Below, piece by piece: positions 14,435 through 50,009 of a DNA stretch of 64,000 nucleotides. Position numbers and translations under genes: made by a program. The DNA lies in IMG/VR virus record IMGVR_UViG_3300029121_000001. One strand, written 5' to 3'. Numbering within the stretch: position 1 is the stretch's first letter; every line of letters begins with the position of its first letter. The notes under the pieces were generated by a model that was not told where the DNA came from, did no database searches, and worked only from the letters and a program-made list of their open reading frames with translations. Source of the DNA: a virus.

Positions 14435-15670
14435 ATGAGAGAATATACTACAGAAGATCTAACTGGACGAAAATTTGGAATGCTAACCGTAATAAGAAGG
14501 GATGTTGGAAATGATTACATCACTCCAAGCACTGGTAGGAAATCAGCTCGATGGATATGCAAATGTCTTTGCGGGAACATAAGAAGTGTTCCAGTACAAC
14601 AATTAAGAAGTGGCCATACATGGAATTGTGGATGCCAATCCAAGAATAAACTTAAAGATTTGACAGGACAAAAATTCGGAAAACTTACAGTAATAGGAAG
14701 AGCTGAAGATTACATTAGTCCAAGAAATGAGCGCGAGGTTCAATGGAGGTGCAAGTGTGACTGCGGCAGGGAATGTATTGTAAGAGGGCATAGTCTTCGT
14801 AATGGTCATACAACATCTTGTGGCTGTGCTATAATTGAAGCATCTACAAAACATGGTATGCACGGCACTAGATTGTATGGTATTTACAGAGGAATGATCA
14901 ATAGATGTTATAATAAAAATTTAGCTCAATATCCTGATTATGGTGCTAGAGGAATTTATGTTTGTGATGAATGGAGAGGTGAAAATGGTTTTATAAACTT
15001 TATGAATTGGGCTCTTGCTAATGGATATACTGAGGAATTAACTATTGACCGTAAAGATAACAATGGCCCTTATTCTCCTGATAATTGTAGATGGGTTACA
15101 ATGGTAATTCAAGCAAACAATAGAAGATCAAATGTTTATGTTGAATATAATGGAGAATCTCATACTATTTCTGAATGGTCTATGATTACTGGCATTCCAT
15201 ATGCTACTTTACGCAAAAGACTAAATGATGGATGGGATATTGATAAAATTTTTAATACTCCTGTAAATGATTATATTCAAACAATAACTAATTCTAATGG
15301 AGAATCTCATACTATTTCTGAATGGTCTATGATTATTGGATTAAATCGTGATTTGATTTATGATAGACTTTATAAACAGAATTGGGATGTAGATAAAGCA
15401 TTGTATACGCCAGTGTCAACTGATAGAATGCCCAATTATATTACATATTATGGAACTACAATGAATTATTCTGATTGGGAAAAAGCTAGAGGATTTTCTA
15501 GTGGTACAGTTTCTCATAGATTAAAACGAGGAATGTCTGTACAAGAAGCTCTTAATGCTCCAATAACTGATCAGAATGGAAATGATAAAGTAATTCCTAA
15601 TGCAATATATTTTATTGATGAAAATAATAAACCGATTAGTCAATTTGATTTTAGCGTAATGTTTAAATAA
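14435..15670 (+). CDS. free-standing homing-endonuclease-like protein (two Zn-ribbon modules, IDR..NCRW domain, three HTH-like repeats)
   Basis: LTGRKFGMLTVIRR..WICKCLCG..LRSGHTWNCGC and LTGQKFGKLTVIGR..WRCKCDCG..LRNGHTTSCGC. Then LTIDRKDNNGPYSPDNCRWVT..QANNRR. Then three copies of (NGESHTISEWSMI.G....L..RL...W....A...P). One of only three plus-strand genes. Confidence 0.55.
   Translation: MREYTTEDLTGRKFGMLTVIRRDVGNDYITPSTGRKSARWICKCLCGNIRSVPVQQLRSGHTWNCGCQSKNKLKDLTGQKFGKLTVIGRAEDYISPRNEREVQWRCKCDCGRECIVRGHSLRNGHTTSCGCAIIEASTKHGMHGTRLYGIYRGMINRCYNKNLAQYPDYGARGIYVCDEWRGENGFINFMNWALANGYTEELTIDRKDNNGPYSPDNCRWVTMVIQANNRRSNVYVEYNGESHTISEWSMITGIPYATLRKRLNDGWDIDKIFNTPVNDYIQTITNSNGESHTISEWSMIIGLNRDLIYDRLYKQNWDVDKALYTPVSTDRMPNYITYYGTTMNYSDWEKARGFSSGTVSHRLKRGMSVQEALNAPITDQNGNDKVIPNAIYFIDENNKPISQFDFSVMFK
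15148..15188 (+). repeat. 41-nt perfect direct repeat, copy 1
   Basis: taatggagaatctcatactatttctgaatggtctatgatta, identical to 15295..15335. Confidence 0.9.
15295..15335 (+). repeat. 41-nt perfect direct repeat, copy 2
   Basis: Identical to 15148..15188. Encodes the repeated NGESHTISEWSMI segment. Confidence 0.9.
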
Positions 15671-15741: not shown

Positions 15742-17496
15742 TTAGTTTTGACCGTTCCTGATTCCGCTTCTATTGAGAATGCGACAACGACTCTGTACTG
15801 GTTGATACTCGTCGATTAGGAAGCGCTCAAATGCGGTGACTGCAGGCAGCGTCGGATTAGCTGCATTGCGAATCTCGTTGGAGACATACATCTGATAGTC
15901 ATAGATACGATAAGTAACACGGTTAGTGTTATGAGGCATCAGCAGAACAATCAGAGTATCATTCCAACGAAGCTTATCAGAACCAATGAACTGATAGATG
16001 CGCTTGTCAGAAGTCACAACAGTACGCTTATAATCCAGATCAACTGCACCAATAGAGTTGGGAGTAGTGTAGGAATACTCAACAGGAGTAATCTTACGGA
16101 TCAGATCAGGATCACCGAAGATAGTGATGACCATGTTAGGATCATTTAGGACCTGCAGCATACGAGTGATCTCGGTGTCAAATGCATCAAAGAACATCGA
16201 ATGACGCCAGGTCAGAGGATCCAGAGCATAGCCCGTCGGAGGTGCATAGTCGAACTCCATGTAACCACGAGAACGATCATCCAGACGATCATAAGAATCA
16301 TCCAGATACTGCTTAATCTTATCATCCTTGTAGTTAGCCAGAGTAGTCTTCAGCATGCTCATAATCTTGGTCAGCTGATTGACCTGATACAGTGCAGCCA
16401 GATCCTTAATTTCCTCAGGGCTGATGGTAACAGACAGAGGAATAGCATTAGGAATCTCGATCAGACGAGTATCAGTATCCCACTTAACAGTGCAGGTATC
16501 CATCATGTGGTTAGCAGTATCCAGCTCAGCAGACAGCATAACCTTAGTGATCTTACCAGCAGCAGAGAAGATATTGAAGACATTCTTATCCATAGTGCCA
16601 GACAGAGTATCATTGATCTTCTCAACAGTGTCAGCATCCTTACGGATAAACAGCTCAACAGGAGCAGTGAAGGTACGTTCATACTGATTGTAGCCAGGAG
16701 CAAACTTGATATTGGTCTGGAACCAGACATTCTGGACCTCACCTGCATCAGCAGCAGTAGCAACCTTACCATTCTTACGAATGAAGCCATCAGCATCAGG
16801 CATAATATCACCCTCAGCGATGTACATCTTCGCGATCTGAATAGCAGAAATATGAGTCTTAATAGACAGATCATCCTGCTTGGTACCACCACAGCGCTTC
16901 AGAATATCGGTGCCACCCATCTCAGGCAGAGTCAGCTCGATATCATACACAGGATTGGACTCATCGATGGCAGCAGTCATCTTGTCCTGATTCAGATACA
17001 TATCGATCTCATTACCCTTGGTGTCGACCAGCAGACGACGCTCCATGGTCATGGTGAACTTGGGACCCTCAGCAACAACCTTCTGAATTGCACCCTTATC
17101 GAAGACCATGTTCATCAGAATATTCTTATGAACAGGGAAAGTCATACCAATGACAGGGTTATAATCTGCCATATTAGCATGCTCCAGGATAGCATTCGCA
17201 TCGTTCTCGAACTGCTGTTCCATCATAGCCTGCTGATCCTCGAGATAACCAGGATCATTGACAAACGGATCGCGAGTATCCTGATCCATAAAGTTCTCGC
17301 AGAAGAACTGCTTCAGGGTCTCACGCTCAGCAGGACGACGCAGAAGCGTCTTGGGCTGCTCGAAGATATCAATACTAGATTCGGTTAGAATATTTTGAGC
17401 AAGATTAATAAAACTCTGAGTATAGCCACTCATCGGATCGCGCGTATAGCTGCCACCGACAAAGCCAGTCTTAGAGTTAACAGCACCGATAGGCAT
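15742..17496 (-). CDS. abundant virion protein, possibly major capsid protein
   Basis: 584 aa, strong SD AAGGAGG, visibly G+C-rich codon usage relative to its neighbours, and preceded by an acidic scaffold-like gene. No diagnostic motif recognised. Confidence 0.35.
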   Translation of the reverse strand: MPIGAVNSKTGFVGGSYTRDPMSGYTQSFINLAQNILTESSIDIFEQPKTLLRRPAERETLKQFFCENFMDQDTRDPFVNDPGYLEDQQAMMEQQFENDANAILEHANMADYNPVIGMTFPVHKNILMNMVFDKGAIQKVVAEGPKFTMTMERRLLVDTKGNEIDMYLNQDKMTAAIDESNPVYDIELTLPEMGGTDILKRCGGTKQDDLSIKTHISAIQIAKMYIAEGDIMPDADGFIRKNGKVATAADAGEVQNVWFQTNIKFAPGYNQYERTFTAPVELFIRKDADTVEKINDTLSGTMDKNVFNIFSAAGKITKVMLSAELDTANHMMDTCTVKWDTDTRLIEIPNAIPLSVTISPEEIKDLAALYQVNQLTKIMSMLKTTLANYKDDKIKQYLDDSYDRLDDRSRGYMEFDYAPPTGYALDPLTWRHSMFFDAFDTEITRMLQVLNDPNMVITIFGDPDLIRKITPVEYSYTTPNSIGAVDLDYKRTVVTSDKRIYQFIGSDKLRWNDTLIVLLMPHNTNRVTYRIYDYQMYVSNEIRNAANPTLPAVTAFERFLIDEYQPVQSRCRILNRSGIRNGQN

Positions 17497-45807: not shown

Positions 45808-45858
45808 ATTATAAACCTCCTAATTATTATAATGCTAAGTCAAAAATCAAAAATTAAT

Positions 45859-45886
45859 AGAGGATAGAGAGTGATCTCTATCCTCT
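45859..45886 (-). terminator. intrinsic terminator (hairpin) closing the fibre/rSAM operon
   Basis: AGAGGATAGAGA/TCTCTATCCTCT hairpin after the stop at 45925. Confidence 0.55.
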
Positions 45887-45924
45887 ATATTATATTTCAG
45901 TATTTATAAAATGGATATTATTCG

Positions 45925-47286
45925 TTACTTATTAAATGCTTCTTTTTCTAGATTAAATAGATAATCTGCTTCTTCTTTACCAAGAATATCTACTACCTCA
46001 TTATATGGAAGATTGATCTTCTTAGGTTCAACATCATTTAATTCCATATGCCGTTTATTATAATAATAACAAGATGACAATACTCTACCTTTATGTGCAT
46101 AGCAGATTCCAGTATATCTTTTATTTGCTGTCCCATAAAGTTCGTAATTATATCCAGAACACCAGCCACATCCCTGAGATACTGGGCAAATCATGCATTT
46201 TTCAGGAGATTGAGATTCTCTAGTGATAGAATCTAATTCTTCTTTTATTTTCTTTTCACTATCTCGTTGATAAATGCCATTAAAGCAATCTCCAATACAA
46301 ATTTTAGATGCTTTTTCATCACCAATGGATATAGGCGCATATCTAATACAAGGATATACTTTTCCATCAGGAGCAAATGCAAGCATTGCTCCAGTGCCTC
46401 CACAATAATTTCTTACAGAGATATCAATATCTCCTATATTGTCATTAATCATTGTGATATATCCATTATATTTAGATTTTATCAAATAATTAGATAATTT
46501 CTTTAATTCTGCATATATTTCATTTGCTGTTTTTATTGTATATTCTGGCTCATATGCAAAATTACAATGAATATTCATGCAGCCATTATTTATCATCATC
46601 TTAATAGAATCAGAAATATATTTAATAGACCCAGGAGTAAATGTCATTTTACTATCTATCCAGCCATATTTCTTTTTTCCATCAAGAAAAGCAGCATATG
46701 CTTTTTCAAATGATCCATTTCCGAATTGATCTATTCTATATTTATCATGTAATTCCTGTACCCCATCAATCGATACTGTACATCTTAAAAAATTATGATA
46801 TTTTTTAAATAGGTGTTGAGCATTTGGAGTAAACCATAAAAGTCCATTGGTTGCAAATGAAAATCTTGTAAATGGTGCTAGTGGTATATTTCTTTCTTCA
46901 CATTGGTAAAAATAATAATCGATAATCGATTCAATTAACTTTGCTTCTATCAAAGGCTCGCCACCAATAAAATCGATTATCAATCCTTTAGAAAAATCAC
47001 CAATAAAATCACCATTATTATACATATCTAAAAGTGTATCGACACACTTTCTAGCCGTATAAATGTTCATTGATCCACATTTCTTATTATGCTCATAACA
47101 ATATGAACATCTCAAATTGCATTGATTGGTGACTTGAAATGTTACTGTTCTACATTTAAAATAATTTTCATTGTTATTATTATCATTTCTAAAAATTCTT
47201 TCGATAAATTTAGAATAATCTTCAGATCGTTTAATCACTATATCGTACCTCACGATTTTCAAAATCAAAAATATATTCAATCTCAT
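45925..47286 (-). CDS. radical SAM enzyme with C-terminal SPASM domain (peptide/protein maturase, anSME-like)
   Basis: CNLRCSYCYE (CxxxCxxC). SPASM-type Cys clusters YCGGTGAMLAFAPDGKVYPC and CMICPVSQGCGWCSGYNY..GICYAH. An alternative coupled start is GTG 47238 (GAGG 9 nt upstream, overlapping the upstream stop). Confidence 0.8.
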   Translation of the reverse strand: MRLNIFLILKIVRYDIVIKRSEDYSKFIERIFRNDNNNNENYFKCRTVTFQVTNQCNLRCSYCYEHNKKCGSMNIYTARKCVDTLLDMYNNGDFIGDFSKGLIIDFIGGEPLIEAKLIESIIDYYFYQCEERNIPLAPFTRFSFATNGLLWFTPNAQHLFKKYHNFLRCTVSIDGVQELHDKYRIDQFGNGSFEKAYAAFLDGKKKYGWIDSKMTFTPGSIKYISDSIKMMINNGCMNIHCNFAYEPEYTIKTANEIYAELKKLSNYLIKSKYNGYITMINDNIGDIDISVRNYCGGTGAMLAFAPDGKVYPCIRYAPISIGDEKASKICIGDCFNGIYQRDSEKKIKEELDSITRESQSPEKCMICPVSQGCGWCSGYNYELYGTANKRYTGICYAHKGRVLSSCYYYNKRHMELNDVEPKKINLPYNEVVDILGKEEADYLFNLEKEAFNK

Positions 47287-47527
47287 GATCTAATTTTGGT
47301 AAGTGATTAGAAATAATTTTTCTACGGGCATAATCTAATTCAATAAAAGACAGTCTTAATTTATCTGAATATTTCTTTAGCACTTCTTCTTTTTTACTAT
47401 TAGATTCATTCTCTTGTAGTGAATCGAAAATAATTTTAACCATTATTTCATAGCTTTTATATATATAAAATAATCGTTCAATATATTCCAATTCTGCTTC
47501 TTGAATATCTTCAATTTTATGTTCCAT
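47231..47527 (-). CDS. small helical protein of the rSAM operon
   Basis: Start trimmed to ATG 47527 (SD GGAG, 1 nt after the upstream stop). 98 aa, charged and helical. Confidence 0.5.
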   Translation of the reverse strand: MEHKIEDIQEAELEYIERLFYIYKSYEIMVKIIFDSLQENESNSKKEEVLKKYSDKLRLSFIELDYARRKIISNHLPKLDHEIEYIFDFENREVRYSD

Positions 47528-47528
47528 A

Positions 47529-48122
47529 TTAGTTTTCTCCATGGATTATATTATATTGAGTATTACTGATCTTTTCAAAAGATTCTTGAATATCCATTCT
47601 CATTTTTATTAATTTAATCATGGTTGAAAAATTATCATCAGTAGAATTTCTAAAAAATAAAATCATACTTGAAATTATATAATATAAAGAAAATATAATT
47701 TCATCAGATAATTCACTAAGATTAAGATTAATAATTGAATCTGTAAAATCTTTTGTAAAAACATTTTGAAAATATTTTTTATTATTATCTAAGATTTTGA
47801 AATAAAAAGTTCTTATTGCAAGTCCTAAAGAGATAATATATTTTTCATAATCATTATTAAATTTATAATTGCATCCATTTGCAATAATATCTATTTTCGA
47901 CTTTACATAATTTAGCCAAGAATTAAAAACATAATTACTATCTATTTTATTGAATTGACCCATATAATATAAAATATAAACTATATTATTTTTATTGATA
48001 TTTCCATTTATATGATTATAAATATCATTAACAGAGAAATCTTCTCTATTCAAAAAATGAAAAAGAGCTAGATCTTGATCAACAATTTTATCTGGATCTA
48101 TTGATTTTATATAATATTCCAT
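47529..48122 (-). CDS. hypothetical protein of the rSAM operon (197 aa)
   Basis: ORF track. SD AAGGAG. 11 nt after the stop of the CXXX-repeat gene. Confidence 0.5.
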   Translation of the reverse strand: MEYYIKSIDPDKIVDQDLALFHFLNREDFSVNDIYNHINGNINKNNIVYILYYMGQFNKIDSNYVFNSWLNYVKSKIDIIANGCNYKFNNDYEKYIISLGLAIRTFYFKILDNNKKYFQNVFTKDFTDSIINLNLSELSDEIIFSLYYIISSMILFFRNSTDDNFSTMIKLIKMRMDIQESFEKISNTQYNIIHGEN

Positions 48123-48133
48123 ATTTTATCTCC

Positions 48134-48700
48134 TTAATTCAACCAAAATTTAGCATTTCCACAGGATCCACCACAATCTGCAGTACAATTACCTCCATCA
48201 CAATTTTCATAGCATGCTCCCATACAATTACCACTCATAAGTTGGCTAGCACATGCTACGTCACACATACCATCACAGCTTCCGCTGCAACCACCACTAC
48301 AGCCACTACAGCCACTATAGCATCCTGTATAGCACAATCCACTGCAGCTAGATTTACATCCTGTATCTGCCCTAGATGATGCTGTAACAGATTTAGAACT
48401 TAAACTAGAAACTGTACTAGTAGCAGTTGTGATTTGATTAGCATAAACAATAGTATCTGTATTAGGAGTTAATTTGCCTCCATTTACAGCATCTAGTGGA
48501 TTAGTAATCTTTTGAATGTGCTCTAGTTTTATATTTTTGCCTTTTGCAGGTGTAATAGTATAATCATATGAAGTTCCATTATAGGATTTCATACTTCCAA
48601 CACTTGCTGAATTTGATCTACGCGTAATCTCCGATTTTACAAGTTTCTTAAGTGCAGTAAAATCACTAGCACTAATTAATCCACCTTTATTAGTAGCCAT
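48134..48700 (-). CDS. protein with C-terminal 16-Cys CXXX-repeat domain
   Basis: Start trimmed to MATNKGG (ATG 48700, SD AAAGGAG inside the fibre gene end). The last 74 aa are CKSSCSGLCYTGCYSGCSGCSGGCSGSCDGMCDVACASQLMSGNCMGACYENCDGGNCTADCGGSCGNAKFWLN. Confidence 0.7.
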   Translation of the reverse strand: MATNKGGLISASDFTALKKLVKSEITRRSNSASVGSMKSYNGTSYDYTITPAKGKNIKLEHIQKITNPLDAVNGGKLTPNTDTIVYANQITTATSTVSSLSSKSVTASSRADTGCKSSCSGLCYTGCYSGCSGCSGGCSGSCDGMCDVACASQLMSGNCMGACYENCDGGNCTADCGGSCGNAKFWLN

Positions 48701-48707
48701 AATTATA

Positions 48708-49649
48708 TTACTCCTTTCCAATAATAATTCTTACTTTATGAATATTATTATTACTATTAGAAGATTCTATTACTCTGCCTACAGATAGATTAGAATATTC
48801 TTTACTAGACTTTCCAACTCCAGGAATATCAGAAGGGATAATATAATCTCCAATATCTACATTACCAATACACTTTACATATACACGTCCACATAATCCT
48901 ATGGGAATATATTTCTTAATATTCTTAGAAATATAATCATCTCCAGTATCTACTGTTTCTCCACCAATAATCATAGCATATTCATCAGAATGAACTCCTG
49001 CAATAATACTACTTTTATTAGTAGCTTTAATATATTTCTCTTCTTTATTATTTTCATCTAATGCAATAATATCTCCAGGTTCTGTATATTCTCCTCTAGG
49101 GAAGAACTCTGCATAGTCATTATATACAGCACCATAACATTTACTAAATTTTGCTACACCATTTTTATCTACATAATAACTAGCACTACCAAAATTAATA
49201 GTACCAGTCATTGTTCCTCCTGCTATAGGAAGATAAGCGTCATTTAGCGAAGTCAGAGTCTGATTCATAGAATAGATCAGAGCAGAGGTAGGAATGTAGT
49301 CATTGGAGTTAACTTGAGTACTAGAAGTAGGTAGTTGAGCAACCTTATGAGAGTGATTAGAAGGTGCTTTGCCATCAATTTGGCCCTTAACAGTAGAGCC
49401 AGTAGAGAAGCCAGTACCAAGAACATTGTACAGATAGCGGACATTTTTTGCCATCTGAGTAATCTTAGTAAAGATACTAGCATGGTTATCGGAAGTAGTA
49501 ATTTGACCTACATTAGTCCAAGATGTTGCACTTGCTTGGGCAACATCGCTAGAAGAGAATCCACCAGTACCTGTAGTAAGAGTACCAGTAGGGGAAGGAG
49601 ATATGTCGTAAGACGTAGATCCTACCTTAATATGATCAACATTAGCCAT
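48708..49649 (-). CDS. tail-fibre-like protein
   Basis: AYLPIAGGTMTGTINF (the common phage fibre motif YLPLAGGTMTG). C-terminal ..VYNDYAEFFP.. resembles the autoproteolytic/chaperone domains of fibre and appendage proteins. Confidence 0.55.
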   Translation of the reverse strand: MANVDHIKVGSTSYDISPSPTGTLTTGTGGFSSSDVAQASATSWTNVGQITTSDNHASIFTKITQMAKNVRYLYNVLGTGFSTGSTVKGQIDGKAPSNHSHKVAQLPTSSTQVNSNDYIPTSALIYSMNQTLTSLNDAYLPIAGGTMTGTINFGSASYYVDKNGVAKFSKCYGAVYNDYAEFFPRGEYTEPGDIIALDENNKEEKYIKATNKSSIIAGVHSDEYAMIIGGETVDTGDDYISKNIKKYIPIGLCGRVYVKCIGNVDIGDYIIPSDIPGVGKSSKEYSNLSVGRVIESSNSNNNIHKVRIIIGKE

Positions 49650-49979: not shown

Positions 49980-50009
49980 GAGGGTAGAAATCGTCAAATT
50001 TCTACCCTC
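49980..50009 (-). terminator. intrinsic terminator
   Basis: 12-bp stem GAGGGTAGAAAT/ATTTCTACCCTC, then ATATTTTTAT on the minus strand. Confidence 0.6.

Follow-up and report, generated by a model that had tools for sequence, protein, structure and literature searches.

A putative CXXX-repeat radical SAM maturation system in a tail-fibre operon of gut phages

Results

The DNA analysed here, called the window throughout, is a stretch of 64,000 nucleotides from the IMG/VR virus record IMGVR_UViG_3300029121_000001, and the subject of this work is a block of five consecutive, tightly coupled open reading frames (ORFs) read on its minus strand at positions 49649-45925. These encode a tail-fibre protein, a Cys-repeat protein (CX), two small proteins (B190 and A100) and a radical S-adenosylmethionine (SAM)/SPASM enzyme. 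We lean towards the reading that this late operon couples the tail-fibre gene to a phage-adapted CXXX-repeat radical SAM maturation system, whose product would be thioether-cross-linked and associated with the fibre. The parts of this reading are held with different strength: judging from the sequences, the enzyme very probably modifies the Cys array of CX, and the presence of the CX product on the fibre in the virion is about an even chance.

Operon structure

The original prediction described five coupled genes with gaps or overlaps of -8 to +11 nt, and this was borne out by the 8-nt overlap and the gaps of 1 nt and 11 nt read at the junctions. The ribosome-binding site of CX (AAGGAG) lies within the end of the fibre gene, before ATG 48700, and 11 nt separate CX from B190. 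The likeliest start of A100 is ATG 47527, 1 nt past the B190 stop, which gives 98 aa (the longest ORF starts at 47542 and has 103 aa). For the radical SAM gene, the longest ORF (47286-45925) would give 453 aa, and the likeliest start is GTG 47238, which has a GAGG site and overlaps the A100 stop by 8 nt. The resulting ~437 aa agrees with the lengths of the homologues (430-465 aa), so that the 450 aa given earlier for the enzyme should likely be read as 437 aa. Such ribosome-binding sites and spacings are typical of translational coupling.

One terminator after the last gene and none within the unit had also been proposed, and the hairpin scan of the block agreed: a hairpin is present at 45888-45857, and zero terminator-like hairpins occur inside the five-gene unit. 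Upstream of the fibre gene, three hairpins were located between 50725 and 49980. The coordinates of all features are collected in Table 1. A nucleotide search of the block against 50,697 phage records returned zero matches.

Table 1. Genes and terminator-like hairpins of the fibre-linked operon in the window.
Feature	Position	Strand	Remarks
Tail fibre	48708..49649	-	313 aa; starts at 49649
CX, Cys-repeat protein	48134..48700	-	188 aa; ATG 48700; presumed radical SAM substrate
B190, all-helical protein	47529..48122	-	197 aa; seen in phage-type cassettes only
A100, accessory protein	47231..47527	-	98 aa; remote TIGR04116 homologue
Radical SAM/SPASM maturase, TIGR04115 lineage	45925..47238	-	~437 aa; longest ORF reaches 47286
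Terminator-like hairpin	45857..45888	-	14-bp stem and T-run; closes the operon after the radical SAM stop
Terminator-like hairpin	49980..50009	-	Upstream of the fibre gene; delimits the unit on its 5' side

The radical SAM enzyme

The best-matching family of the enzyme is NCBIfam TIGR04115 (radical SAM peptide maturase, CXXX-repeat target), with 283.2 bits over positions 2-359 of 359, the curated cutoff being 350 bits. The orthologue from a Vallitalea prophage reaches 427.9 bits and a bacterial member (locus L003) 630; as the Vallitalea protein lies above the cutoff, the assignment to the lineage is right and the window copy is a divergent member of it. The other matches were PapB (149.3 bits; cutoff of NF047865 340), the SCIFF maturase (84), QhpD (77; cutoff 453) and anSME (49.7; cutoff of TIGR03942 349), the last of which aligned over the N-terminal radical SAM core only. 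No sulfatase gene or motif was found in the operon. The placement of the enzyme among the maturases of CXXX targets, and not among the sulfatase-maturating enzymes, thus held in the hidden Markov model (HMM) comparison, at 283 vs 50 bits. In the PHROG database the enzyme matched phrog_1802 (E=2.8e-57).

The alignment of eight relatives upheld the motifs that had been read from the window: the CxxxCxxC cysteines (C56/C60/C63) are invariant, as are the SPASM cysteines C295, C313, C364, C367, C373, C376 and C395. Compared with the SCIFF maturase model, ~88 N-terminal positions are missing from the enzyme. Without this N-terminal recognition region, a factor acting in trans likely presents the substrate; the candidate for this role is the 98-aa protein. 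In a tblastn search, the window enzyme also matched radical SAM genes of Campylobacter myoviruses (14 records).

The Cys-repeat protein CX

CX has 16 Cys in its last 74 aa, spaced 4,4,4,4,3,4,4,4,4,9,4,4,5,4,4; the earlier count for this 188-aa protein was correct, and the binomial probability of such an enrichment is ~6e-14 against the background of 1.6% Cys in the 41 other window ORFs. Residues ~10-110 form a helical N-terminal domain (N-domain), which passes through a conserved junction (GCKSSCSGLCYTGC) into the 16-Cys CXXX array ending in ...GNAKFWLN. The family of homologues comprises at least 112 clusters (90% identity), every one from metagenomes or metagenome-assembled genomes; the N-domain (~105 aa) and the junction GCxxSCSGLCxxxC are conserved among its members, and the length of the array varies. 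Some of the clusters are tagged PF27846 (tSAM_targ_Cxxx_rpt, a recent Pfam family), in line with the proposal that the Cys-rich protein is of the CXXX-target type; the tags on CX homologues are many, with weak or faint matches. The match of CX itself to TIGR04117 is sub-threshold (16.9 bits, E=0.005, cutoff 50).

The N-domain HMM matched CXXX proteins only (93/93). Its apparent occurrence in giant fn3, MucBP and DUF7507 repeat proteins, obtained in an exhaustive phmmer search, was rejected as a composition artefact. The AlphaFold2 (AF2) model of CX presents the N-domain as three helices with a predicted local distance difference test score (pLDDT) of 80-90, and the array has a pLDDT of 30-40. 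A Foldseek comparison of the model with PDB gave nothing below E=3, and the comparison with BFVD gave unannotated homologues only.

Cys is the only invariant residue of the array, the non-Cys positions of which diverge fast. Phage and bacterial arrays have in common a C-[ST]-G-[SGT] unit, and 84-90% of the Cys pairs are at i,i+4. Phage arrays contain a median of 38 Cys (range 12-95), and the phage substrates measure 125-473 aa. A Tat-like (twin-arginine translocation) signal is present in 31/50 bacterial targets vs 0/87 phage substrates, and no signal peptide was found on the phage substrates (0/87). The motif that opens the array, CxxSCxGLCxxxC, was considered as a recognition element common with the bacterial targets and was rejected, being mostly phage-specific (59/87 vs 6/50).

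The identities of the N-domain and the array were discordant among the homologues P0008, P0009 and P0017 (50% and 82% for one homologue, 73% and 52% for another), which points to recombination between the gene halves, as in fibre modules. Two further homologues, P0210 (375 aa) and P0255 (327 aa), bear extra N-terminal domains of ~135-175 aa before the N-domain and array. The extension of P0210 starts with 'NLIPNSSFE...GW', recalling carbohydrate-binding jelly rolls; no Pfam family or PDB structure was matched by either extension.

The tail-fibre protein and its linkage to the cassette

The N-terminal shaft of the fibre protein is variable and contains an HxH motif (NHSH) and a AYLPIAGGTMTG motif; the C-terminal domain of ~170 aa (YGAVYNDYAEFFPRG...GDIIALD), referred to below as the C-domain, is conserved. 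The window protein has the HxH and LPxxGGxMxG motifs and a weak PHROG match to tail fiber (E=1e-3); by these motifs, this match and the context of its relatives it is a tail fibre, its own scores being weak. The fibres of the relatives contain a tail-collar fibre N-terminal domain or collagen repeats. The Pfam family Peptidase_G2 intramolecular chaperone (PF11962) scored 21.9 bits on the window fibre, and 17-19 bits in two relatives, all below the gathering score of 25. The fibre also contains the sequence 'N|DYAE', which may resemble the cleavage site of phi29 gp12. Searches of PDB with the fibre sequence and with the C-domain profile gave no match.

For the survey of relatives, with the radical SAM enzyme as seed, 80 loci from IMG/VR and 80 from GTDB genomes were collected and their ORFs classified by purpose-built HMMs; from IMG/VR, the best 80 of 445 radical SAM matches and the best 80 of 191 fibre C-domain matches were examined. 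The order CX, B190, A100, radical SAM after a fibre gene was found in a P22-portal phage, in PBSX-like prophages and in jumbo phages. The P22-portal phage (~35 kb) has the cassette after tail proteins of 635 aa and 843 aa (collagen-like) and before an amidase. The PBSX-like prophages belong to Vallitalea, Desnuesiella massiliensis and Anaerobacterium chartisolvens, and their gene order is Baseplate_J, Mu gp48 or P2 gpI (P2_I), fibre, CX, a protein of ~185 aa, a protein of ~105-110 aa, radical SAM, holin and lysin. On a human-gut contig the cassette lies within a run of fibre-like genes.

A homologue of the fibre C-domain is encoded directly upstream of CX in 56/96 distinct loci. The shafts of these upstream fibres vary, and they carry HxH, 'P[IV]xxGGTG' and 'LGA[LM]PxxGGxMxG' motifs. 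Genes in the same slot, with or without the conserved C-domain, matched Phage_tail_fib (37.6 bits, cutoff 23) or collagen repeats. Fibre C-domain, N-domain CX, B190 and A100 were all present in 54/80 enzyme-seeded viral loci. The reverse test was seeded on the C-domain: in 62/66 loci with enough downstream sequence, CX, A100 and radical SAM follow immediately downstream, and in the other four the fibre is a second copy, with the cassette at another fibre of the same contig. The C-domain profile was built from cassette-linked fibres, so that more distant, cassette-free C-domains could fall outside this count. The predicted co-occurrence of the radical SAM gene, the CXXX gene and the fibre gene is accordingly kept across very different phages. 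The jumbo phage contig IMGVR_UViG_3300045988_158992 (L015:766-8398) has two divergent modules of fibre, CX, B190 and A100 back to back, and contigs 156218 and 138928 have two cassettes each (L013/L046 and L014/L043).

The small proteins A100 and B190

The 98-aa and 197-aa proteins gave no match in Pfam, NCBIfam and PHROG scans, and hmmscan of the window A100 and three phage homologues for TIGR04116 (cutoff 50 bits) gave no match at E<=0.1. A profile comparison with hhalign of 56 phage A100 sequences and 36 bacterial TIGR04116-type sequences aligned the two families over their full length (97 columns) with 82% probability and E=1.1e-5. Iterated HMMs started independently on phage and on bacterial proteins converged on the same ORFs, with 90 in common, and both profiles have an N-terminal 'E..I..LF' and a C-terminal 'Y/W-x-[FI]-[DN]-F...E-[VI]'. 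By these sequence comparisons A100 qualifies as a remote homologue of TIGR04116, the 'CXXX repeat peptide modification system protein'. The suggested comparison of the two small ORFs with partner families of ribosomally synthesised and post-translationally modified peptide (RiPP) systems was therefore positive for one of them, the 98-aa protein.

No relatives of B190 were detected outside these cassettes. A word-based search found 2 homologues and a profile search 11, a sign of fast evolution. B190 occurs together with the N-domain in 55/80 viral loci, with the fibre C-domain present in 54 of these, and it is presumed to be a partner or chaperone of the CX N-domain. The possibility that B190 replaces TIGR04119, the second maturase of the bacterial systems, by homology was rejected (hhalign probability 0.3%).

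A divergent version in SPN3US-like phages

A divergent version of the system is present in the SPN3US-like jumbo phages of Salmonella, Erwinia, Escherichia and Proteus (70 records). In SPN3US (NC_027402 / JN641803) two proteins of ~130 aa with C-terminal CXXX arrays are followed by gp165 and the radical SAM genes gp164 and gp163; the best family of gp163 is TIGR04115, with 126 bits. The array ORFs (L002:3094-3486 and L002:3497-3901) lie between gp167 and gp165, directly downstream of the 'virion structural protein' gp167 and the tail protein gp168. [quoted passage not shown] In most of the ~70 records the array ORFs are unannotated or replaced by a wrong-frame ORF (gp166/ACQ60_gp100).

Distribution and architectures

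The surveyed loci fell into the gene arrangements listed in Table 2. A CXXX-array ORF was found in 75/80 viral and 69/80 genomic enzyme-seeded loci, and the N-domain in 66/80 viral loci and 17 genome loci, nearly all of the latter from Clostridia. Radical SAM enzymes encoded with an N-domain substrate group together in a single clade, ~33% identical to the bacterial members. TIGR04119 is missing from the window and from phage-type loci and is present, separate or fused, in the Bacteroidales and Clostridia systems; together with the N-domain it was found in one locus only. No conserved peptidase or exporter/transporter gene was found in the cassette. With a 188-aa precursor, a folded N-domain and no conserved peptidase or exporter, the cassette falls outside the classical definition of a RiPP cluster. 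It is widespread in gut phages and Clostridia prophages, being neither rare nor peculiar to this phage, and the joined fibre gene and system are kept by hundreds of phages and prophages unrelated to it.

Table 2. Architectures of CXXX-repeat radical SAM loci.
Type	Gene order	Remarks
Phage	Fibre, CX (N-domain), B190, A100, radical SAM	In a few loci A100, radical SAM, CX
Bacteroidales	CX (Tat signal), radical SAM, TIGR04119, TIGR04116	Canonical system
Clostridia	~710-aa fused enzyme, A100, short CX	Targets of 52-100 aa
Margulisbacteria	CX, radical SAM, A100	Targets of ~650 aa

Several loci were unusual in composition. L003 (MT837480.1, 6.8 kb) is filed as 'Bacteriophage sp.', looks bacterial and contains no phage genes; it holds the canonical set of a Tat-signal target, TIGR04115, a SPASM-only TIGR04119 and a 91-aa TIGR04116, followed by tatA and tatC. 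The Tat-like SRRxF signals of the bacterial targets (L113-L168) and the presence of tatA/tatC suggest the export of an already folded, probably rigid product; no mention of Tat-linked export in the parent CXXX family was found in the published literature. The contigs L069-L074 (111-179 kb, L074 19.6 kb) have very few long ORFs in the standard code and a radical SAM gene that looks split, and these phages may have undergone stop-codon reassignment. Their CX has a truncated N-domain, and its gene is downstream of radical SAM.

The Margulisiibacteriota/Termititenax loci L117, L118, L124 and L131 encode CXXX proteins of 638-667 aa beside a radical SAM enzyme of ~400 aa and an A100-like protein. 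These targets are very large for a RiPP-type system, and this class, which is non-phage and lacks TIGR04119, reaches 122 Cys. The Clostridia loci L107, L110, L111, L114, L115, L120, L121 and others encode enzymes of ~683-735 aa that are apparent fusions of TIGR04115 and a TIGR04119-like protein, mostly followed by an A100-like gene and targets of 52-100 aa.

Genome context

The window belongs to a phiKZ-like jumbo phage from the gut, with ~32% GC, and encodes split beta subunits of a multisubunit RNA polymerase, a GroEL-like chaperonin, a UvsX-like recombinase and the major head protein. It also encodes the anaerobic ribonucleotide reductase NrdD, which points to an anaerobic host. None of the genes flanking the block had a recognisable function in the PHROG scan. 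The fibre gene is the sole recognisable tail gene near the block, hence a larger tail module is not visible in this window. The description of the block as embedded in a receptor-binding module is shown for the relatives and not for this window.

An HNH endonuclease gene (14435-15670, plus strand; phrog_374, E=2e-87) adjoins the major head protein gene (15742-17496). It is one of only eight plus-strand ORFs in a window of mostly minus-strand genes, and may encode a homing endonuclease.

Discussion

Proposed mechanism

Under the reading preferred here, the radical SAM enzyme would modify the CX array in the cytoplasm of the infected cell, with the 98-aa protein acting as a recognition or scaffold factor in trans. 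By analogy with PapB, QhpD and the SCIFF maturases, the likeliest product would be a series of short-range Cys-S-to-carbon thioether rings; this chemistry is the likeliest because the nearest characterised relatives all form thioethers and Cys is the one residue that the arrays never vary. A floppy stretch of Gly, Ser, Thr and Cys would in this way become a rigid element resistant to reduction and proteases. The N-domain and the 197-aa protein, both missing from the bacterial systems, would link the modified protein to the fibre, where it could be a distal tip, an adhesin-like subunit or a fibre-bound decoration. In the reducing, anaerobic gut thioethers persist and disulfides do not, which would explain the concentration of the system in phages of strict anaerobes.

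The long arrays, the lack of a signal peptide and of a conserved peptidase or exporter, and the fibre-like recombination of modules do not fit a secreted peptide. A bolder generalisation, to which we give somewhat less than even credence, is that many phage morphotypes 'weld' a fibre subunit by radical SAM chemistry, with a thioether ladder taking the place of disulfides, in habitats that are anaerobic, reducing and rich in proteases, and forming a rapidly diversifying tip that binds the receptor or stabilises.

Points against this reading and alternative explanations

Several results weigh against the reading of CX as a cross-linked fibre component. The modification, the type of bond and the location of CX in the virion are what we infer from gene linkage and homology, and the window enzyme, its substrate and the 98-aa protein all score under the curated cutoffs of their families. 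The AF2 model gives no predicted structure for the array, the predicted fold of the N-domain has no informative structural match in PDB or BFVD, and the model of B190 (pLDDT 45) is unusable. The papers on the virion proteome of SPN3US are silent on gp163-167; as the CX ORFs of this phage are unannotated, the published proteomes could not have detected CX. The fibre C-domain weakly resembles a self-cleaving intramolecular chaperone, and the mature fibre may be without it. Were the C-domain cleaved off, the linkage of the cassette would reflect a shared assembly pathway and not contact in the mature particle. Finally, the interval from fibre to lysis genes is a well-known site of 'moron' cargo in temperate phages, so that synteny is no proof of a structural role.

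The last point leads to an explanation that we regard as unlikely, namely that the cassette is accessory cargo and that its modified Cys-rich product acts outside the virion, as a bacteriocin-like toxin, a signal or an anti-competitor factor freed at lysis. The prophage cassettes do lie exactly between fibre and holin/lysin, a known hotspot for cargo, the bacterial relatives are RiPP-like systems with exported targets, and lysis would make an exporter unnecessary. Against this, the cassette is tied to a fibre with one specific C-domain even in lytic jumbo phages of scattered gene order, and in L015 it was duplicated along with the fibre. The length of the substrates (125-473 aa), their folded N-domain and the lack of a leader peptidase also speak against it, and the operon has no internal terminator and overlaps the fibre gene, the end of which contains the ribosome-binding site of CX.

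The position directly downstream of the fibre gene is also that of known fibre chaperones, and CX and B190 might instead form a chaperone or scaffold like Tfa or gp38/gp57 that folds or trims the fibre and is not retained, with an array that may bind metal or Fe-S. The strict link to a C-domain weakly like an intramolecular chaperone and the metal-binding HxH motifs of the fibres would suit this role. It would leave unexplained a dedicated maturase and an accessory protein common with non-phage bacterial systems, and arrays of 12-95 Cys with fast-diverging non-Cys positions are better suited to an exposed element; we consider an assembly factor distinctly improbable. It is more doubtful still that the chemistry is of another kind, such as formylglycine formation (as by anSME), C-C or ether links or a cofactor-like product, in which case the biology would possibly be unchanged. 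SPASM enzymes catalyse many reactions, no characterised member of TIGR04115 was found in the literature searches, the phage clade is ~33% identical to the bacterial members, and the bacterial systems need the second maturase TIGR04119, which the phages lack. The nearest characterised families, on the other hand, are all formers of Cys thioethers (PapB 149, SCIFF 84 and QhpD 77 vs anSME 50 bits), and Cys alone is invariant in the array.

Comparison with known systems

The bacterial CXXX system (TIGR04115, TIGR04119 and TIGR04116 with TIGR04114/04117/PF27846 targets) resembles the phage system in the radical SAM lineage, the C-[ST]-G-[SGT] unit of the array, a homologous accessory protein of ~95 aa and a tight operon. 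The phage version differs from it in having neither TIGR04119 nor a Tat/Sec signal on the target, in the ~105-aa helical N-domain that the target has gained, in the extra phage-type protein of ~190 aa, in the separate clade of its enzymes (~33% identity) and in the linkage to a tail fibre. No description of the chemistry of the parent bacterial system was found in the literature searches.

Maturases of the PapB type and the SCIFF type make serial thioether rings from Cys-S to Cβ/Cγ (PMC9413430; PMC10114670). PapB/PapA (freyrasin) and the ranthipeptide/SCIFF maturases are like the present system in that SPASM enzymes act on repeated Cys motifs, and PapB is the second-best family of the window enzyme. 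PapB links Cys to Asp or Glu within its motif, whereas Asp makes up 4-7% at the three intervening positions of the phage array and Glu is below the listed frequencies; moreover, PapB needs Cys-X3-Asp/Glu, and in the phage array the residue at i+4 is the next Cys. The PapB score of the window enzyme (149.3) is far below 340, and the phage substrate is a protein of up to 473 aa and not a short peptide.

QhpD installs several intramolecular thioethers in the protein subunit QhpC, which later joins a larger assembly (PMC10114670). As an analogy, QhpD/QhpC is the best conceptual precedent for the radical cross-linking of a structural subunit. It differs in its score (77 bits vs a cutoff of 453), and QhpC is a subunit of a periplasmic enzyme, with no repeat array and no link to phages.

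Genes that directly follow the fibre gene and encode fibre-tip adhesins or assembly proteins are familiar from the T-even phages (gp38) and from Mu and P2 (Tfa). CX is like gp38/Tfa in the position of its gene, in the combination of a conserved attachment part with a variable Gly-rich part and in the recombination of modules. It differs from them in that no similarity of sequence or fold was detected, and those proteins need no enzymatic maturase.

Because the families of the enzyme, the target and the accessory protein were already defined bioinformatically, the phage system is not categorically new. What is new is the phage architecture, with its N-domain substrate, B190, no TIGR04119, no signal peptide and an enzyme clade of its own; its systematic coupling to a type of tail fibre across jumbo, myo-type and P22-portal phages; and its previously unnoticed presence in a model phage. 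Full-text literature searches found no published account of a phage CXXX system or of its link to fibres, and the original view that no phage structural-protein maturation of this kind had been described stood up to the same searches.

Significance

The present results bear on the annotation of phage genomes, as most of the ~70 SPN3US-like phage entries in GenBank lack the substrate genes or give them in the wrong frame. They also offer, for a CXXX family that has been defined by bioinformatics only, a compact set of four genes whose substrate is large and easy to detect. Tractable systems are the model phage SPN3US, its Erwinia relatives and the prophages of the cultured Clostridia Desnuesiella massiliensis mt10, Anaerobacterium chartisolvens DSM 27016 and Neglectibacter timonensis SN17.

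The covalent stabilisation of phage particles known so far is autocatalytic, as with the isopeptide bonds of HK97, or relies on disulfides. If the reading preferred here is true, the system would be the first instance of a radical enzyme modifying a virion protein and a new principle of virion maturation, with a bearing on the stability and host range of gut phages, and it would give the CXXX-repeat radical SAM family its first biological role and an experimental handle.

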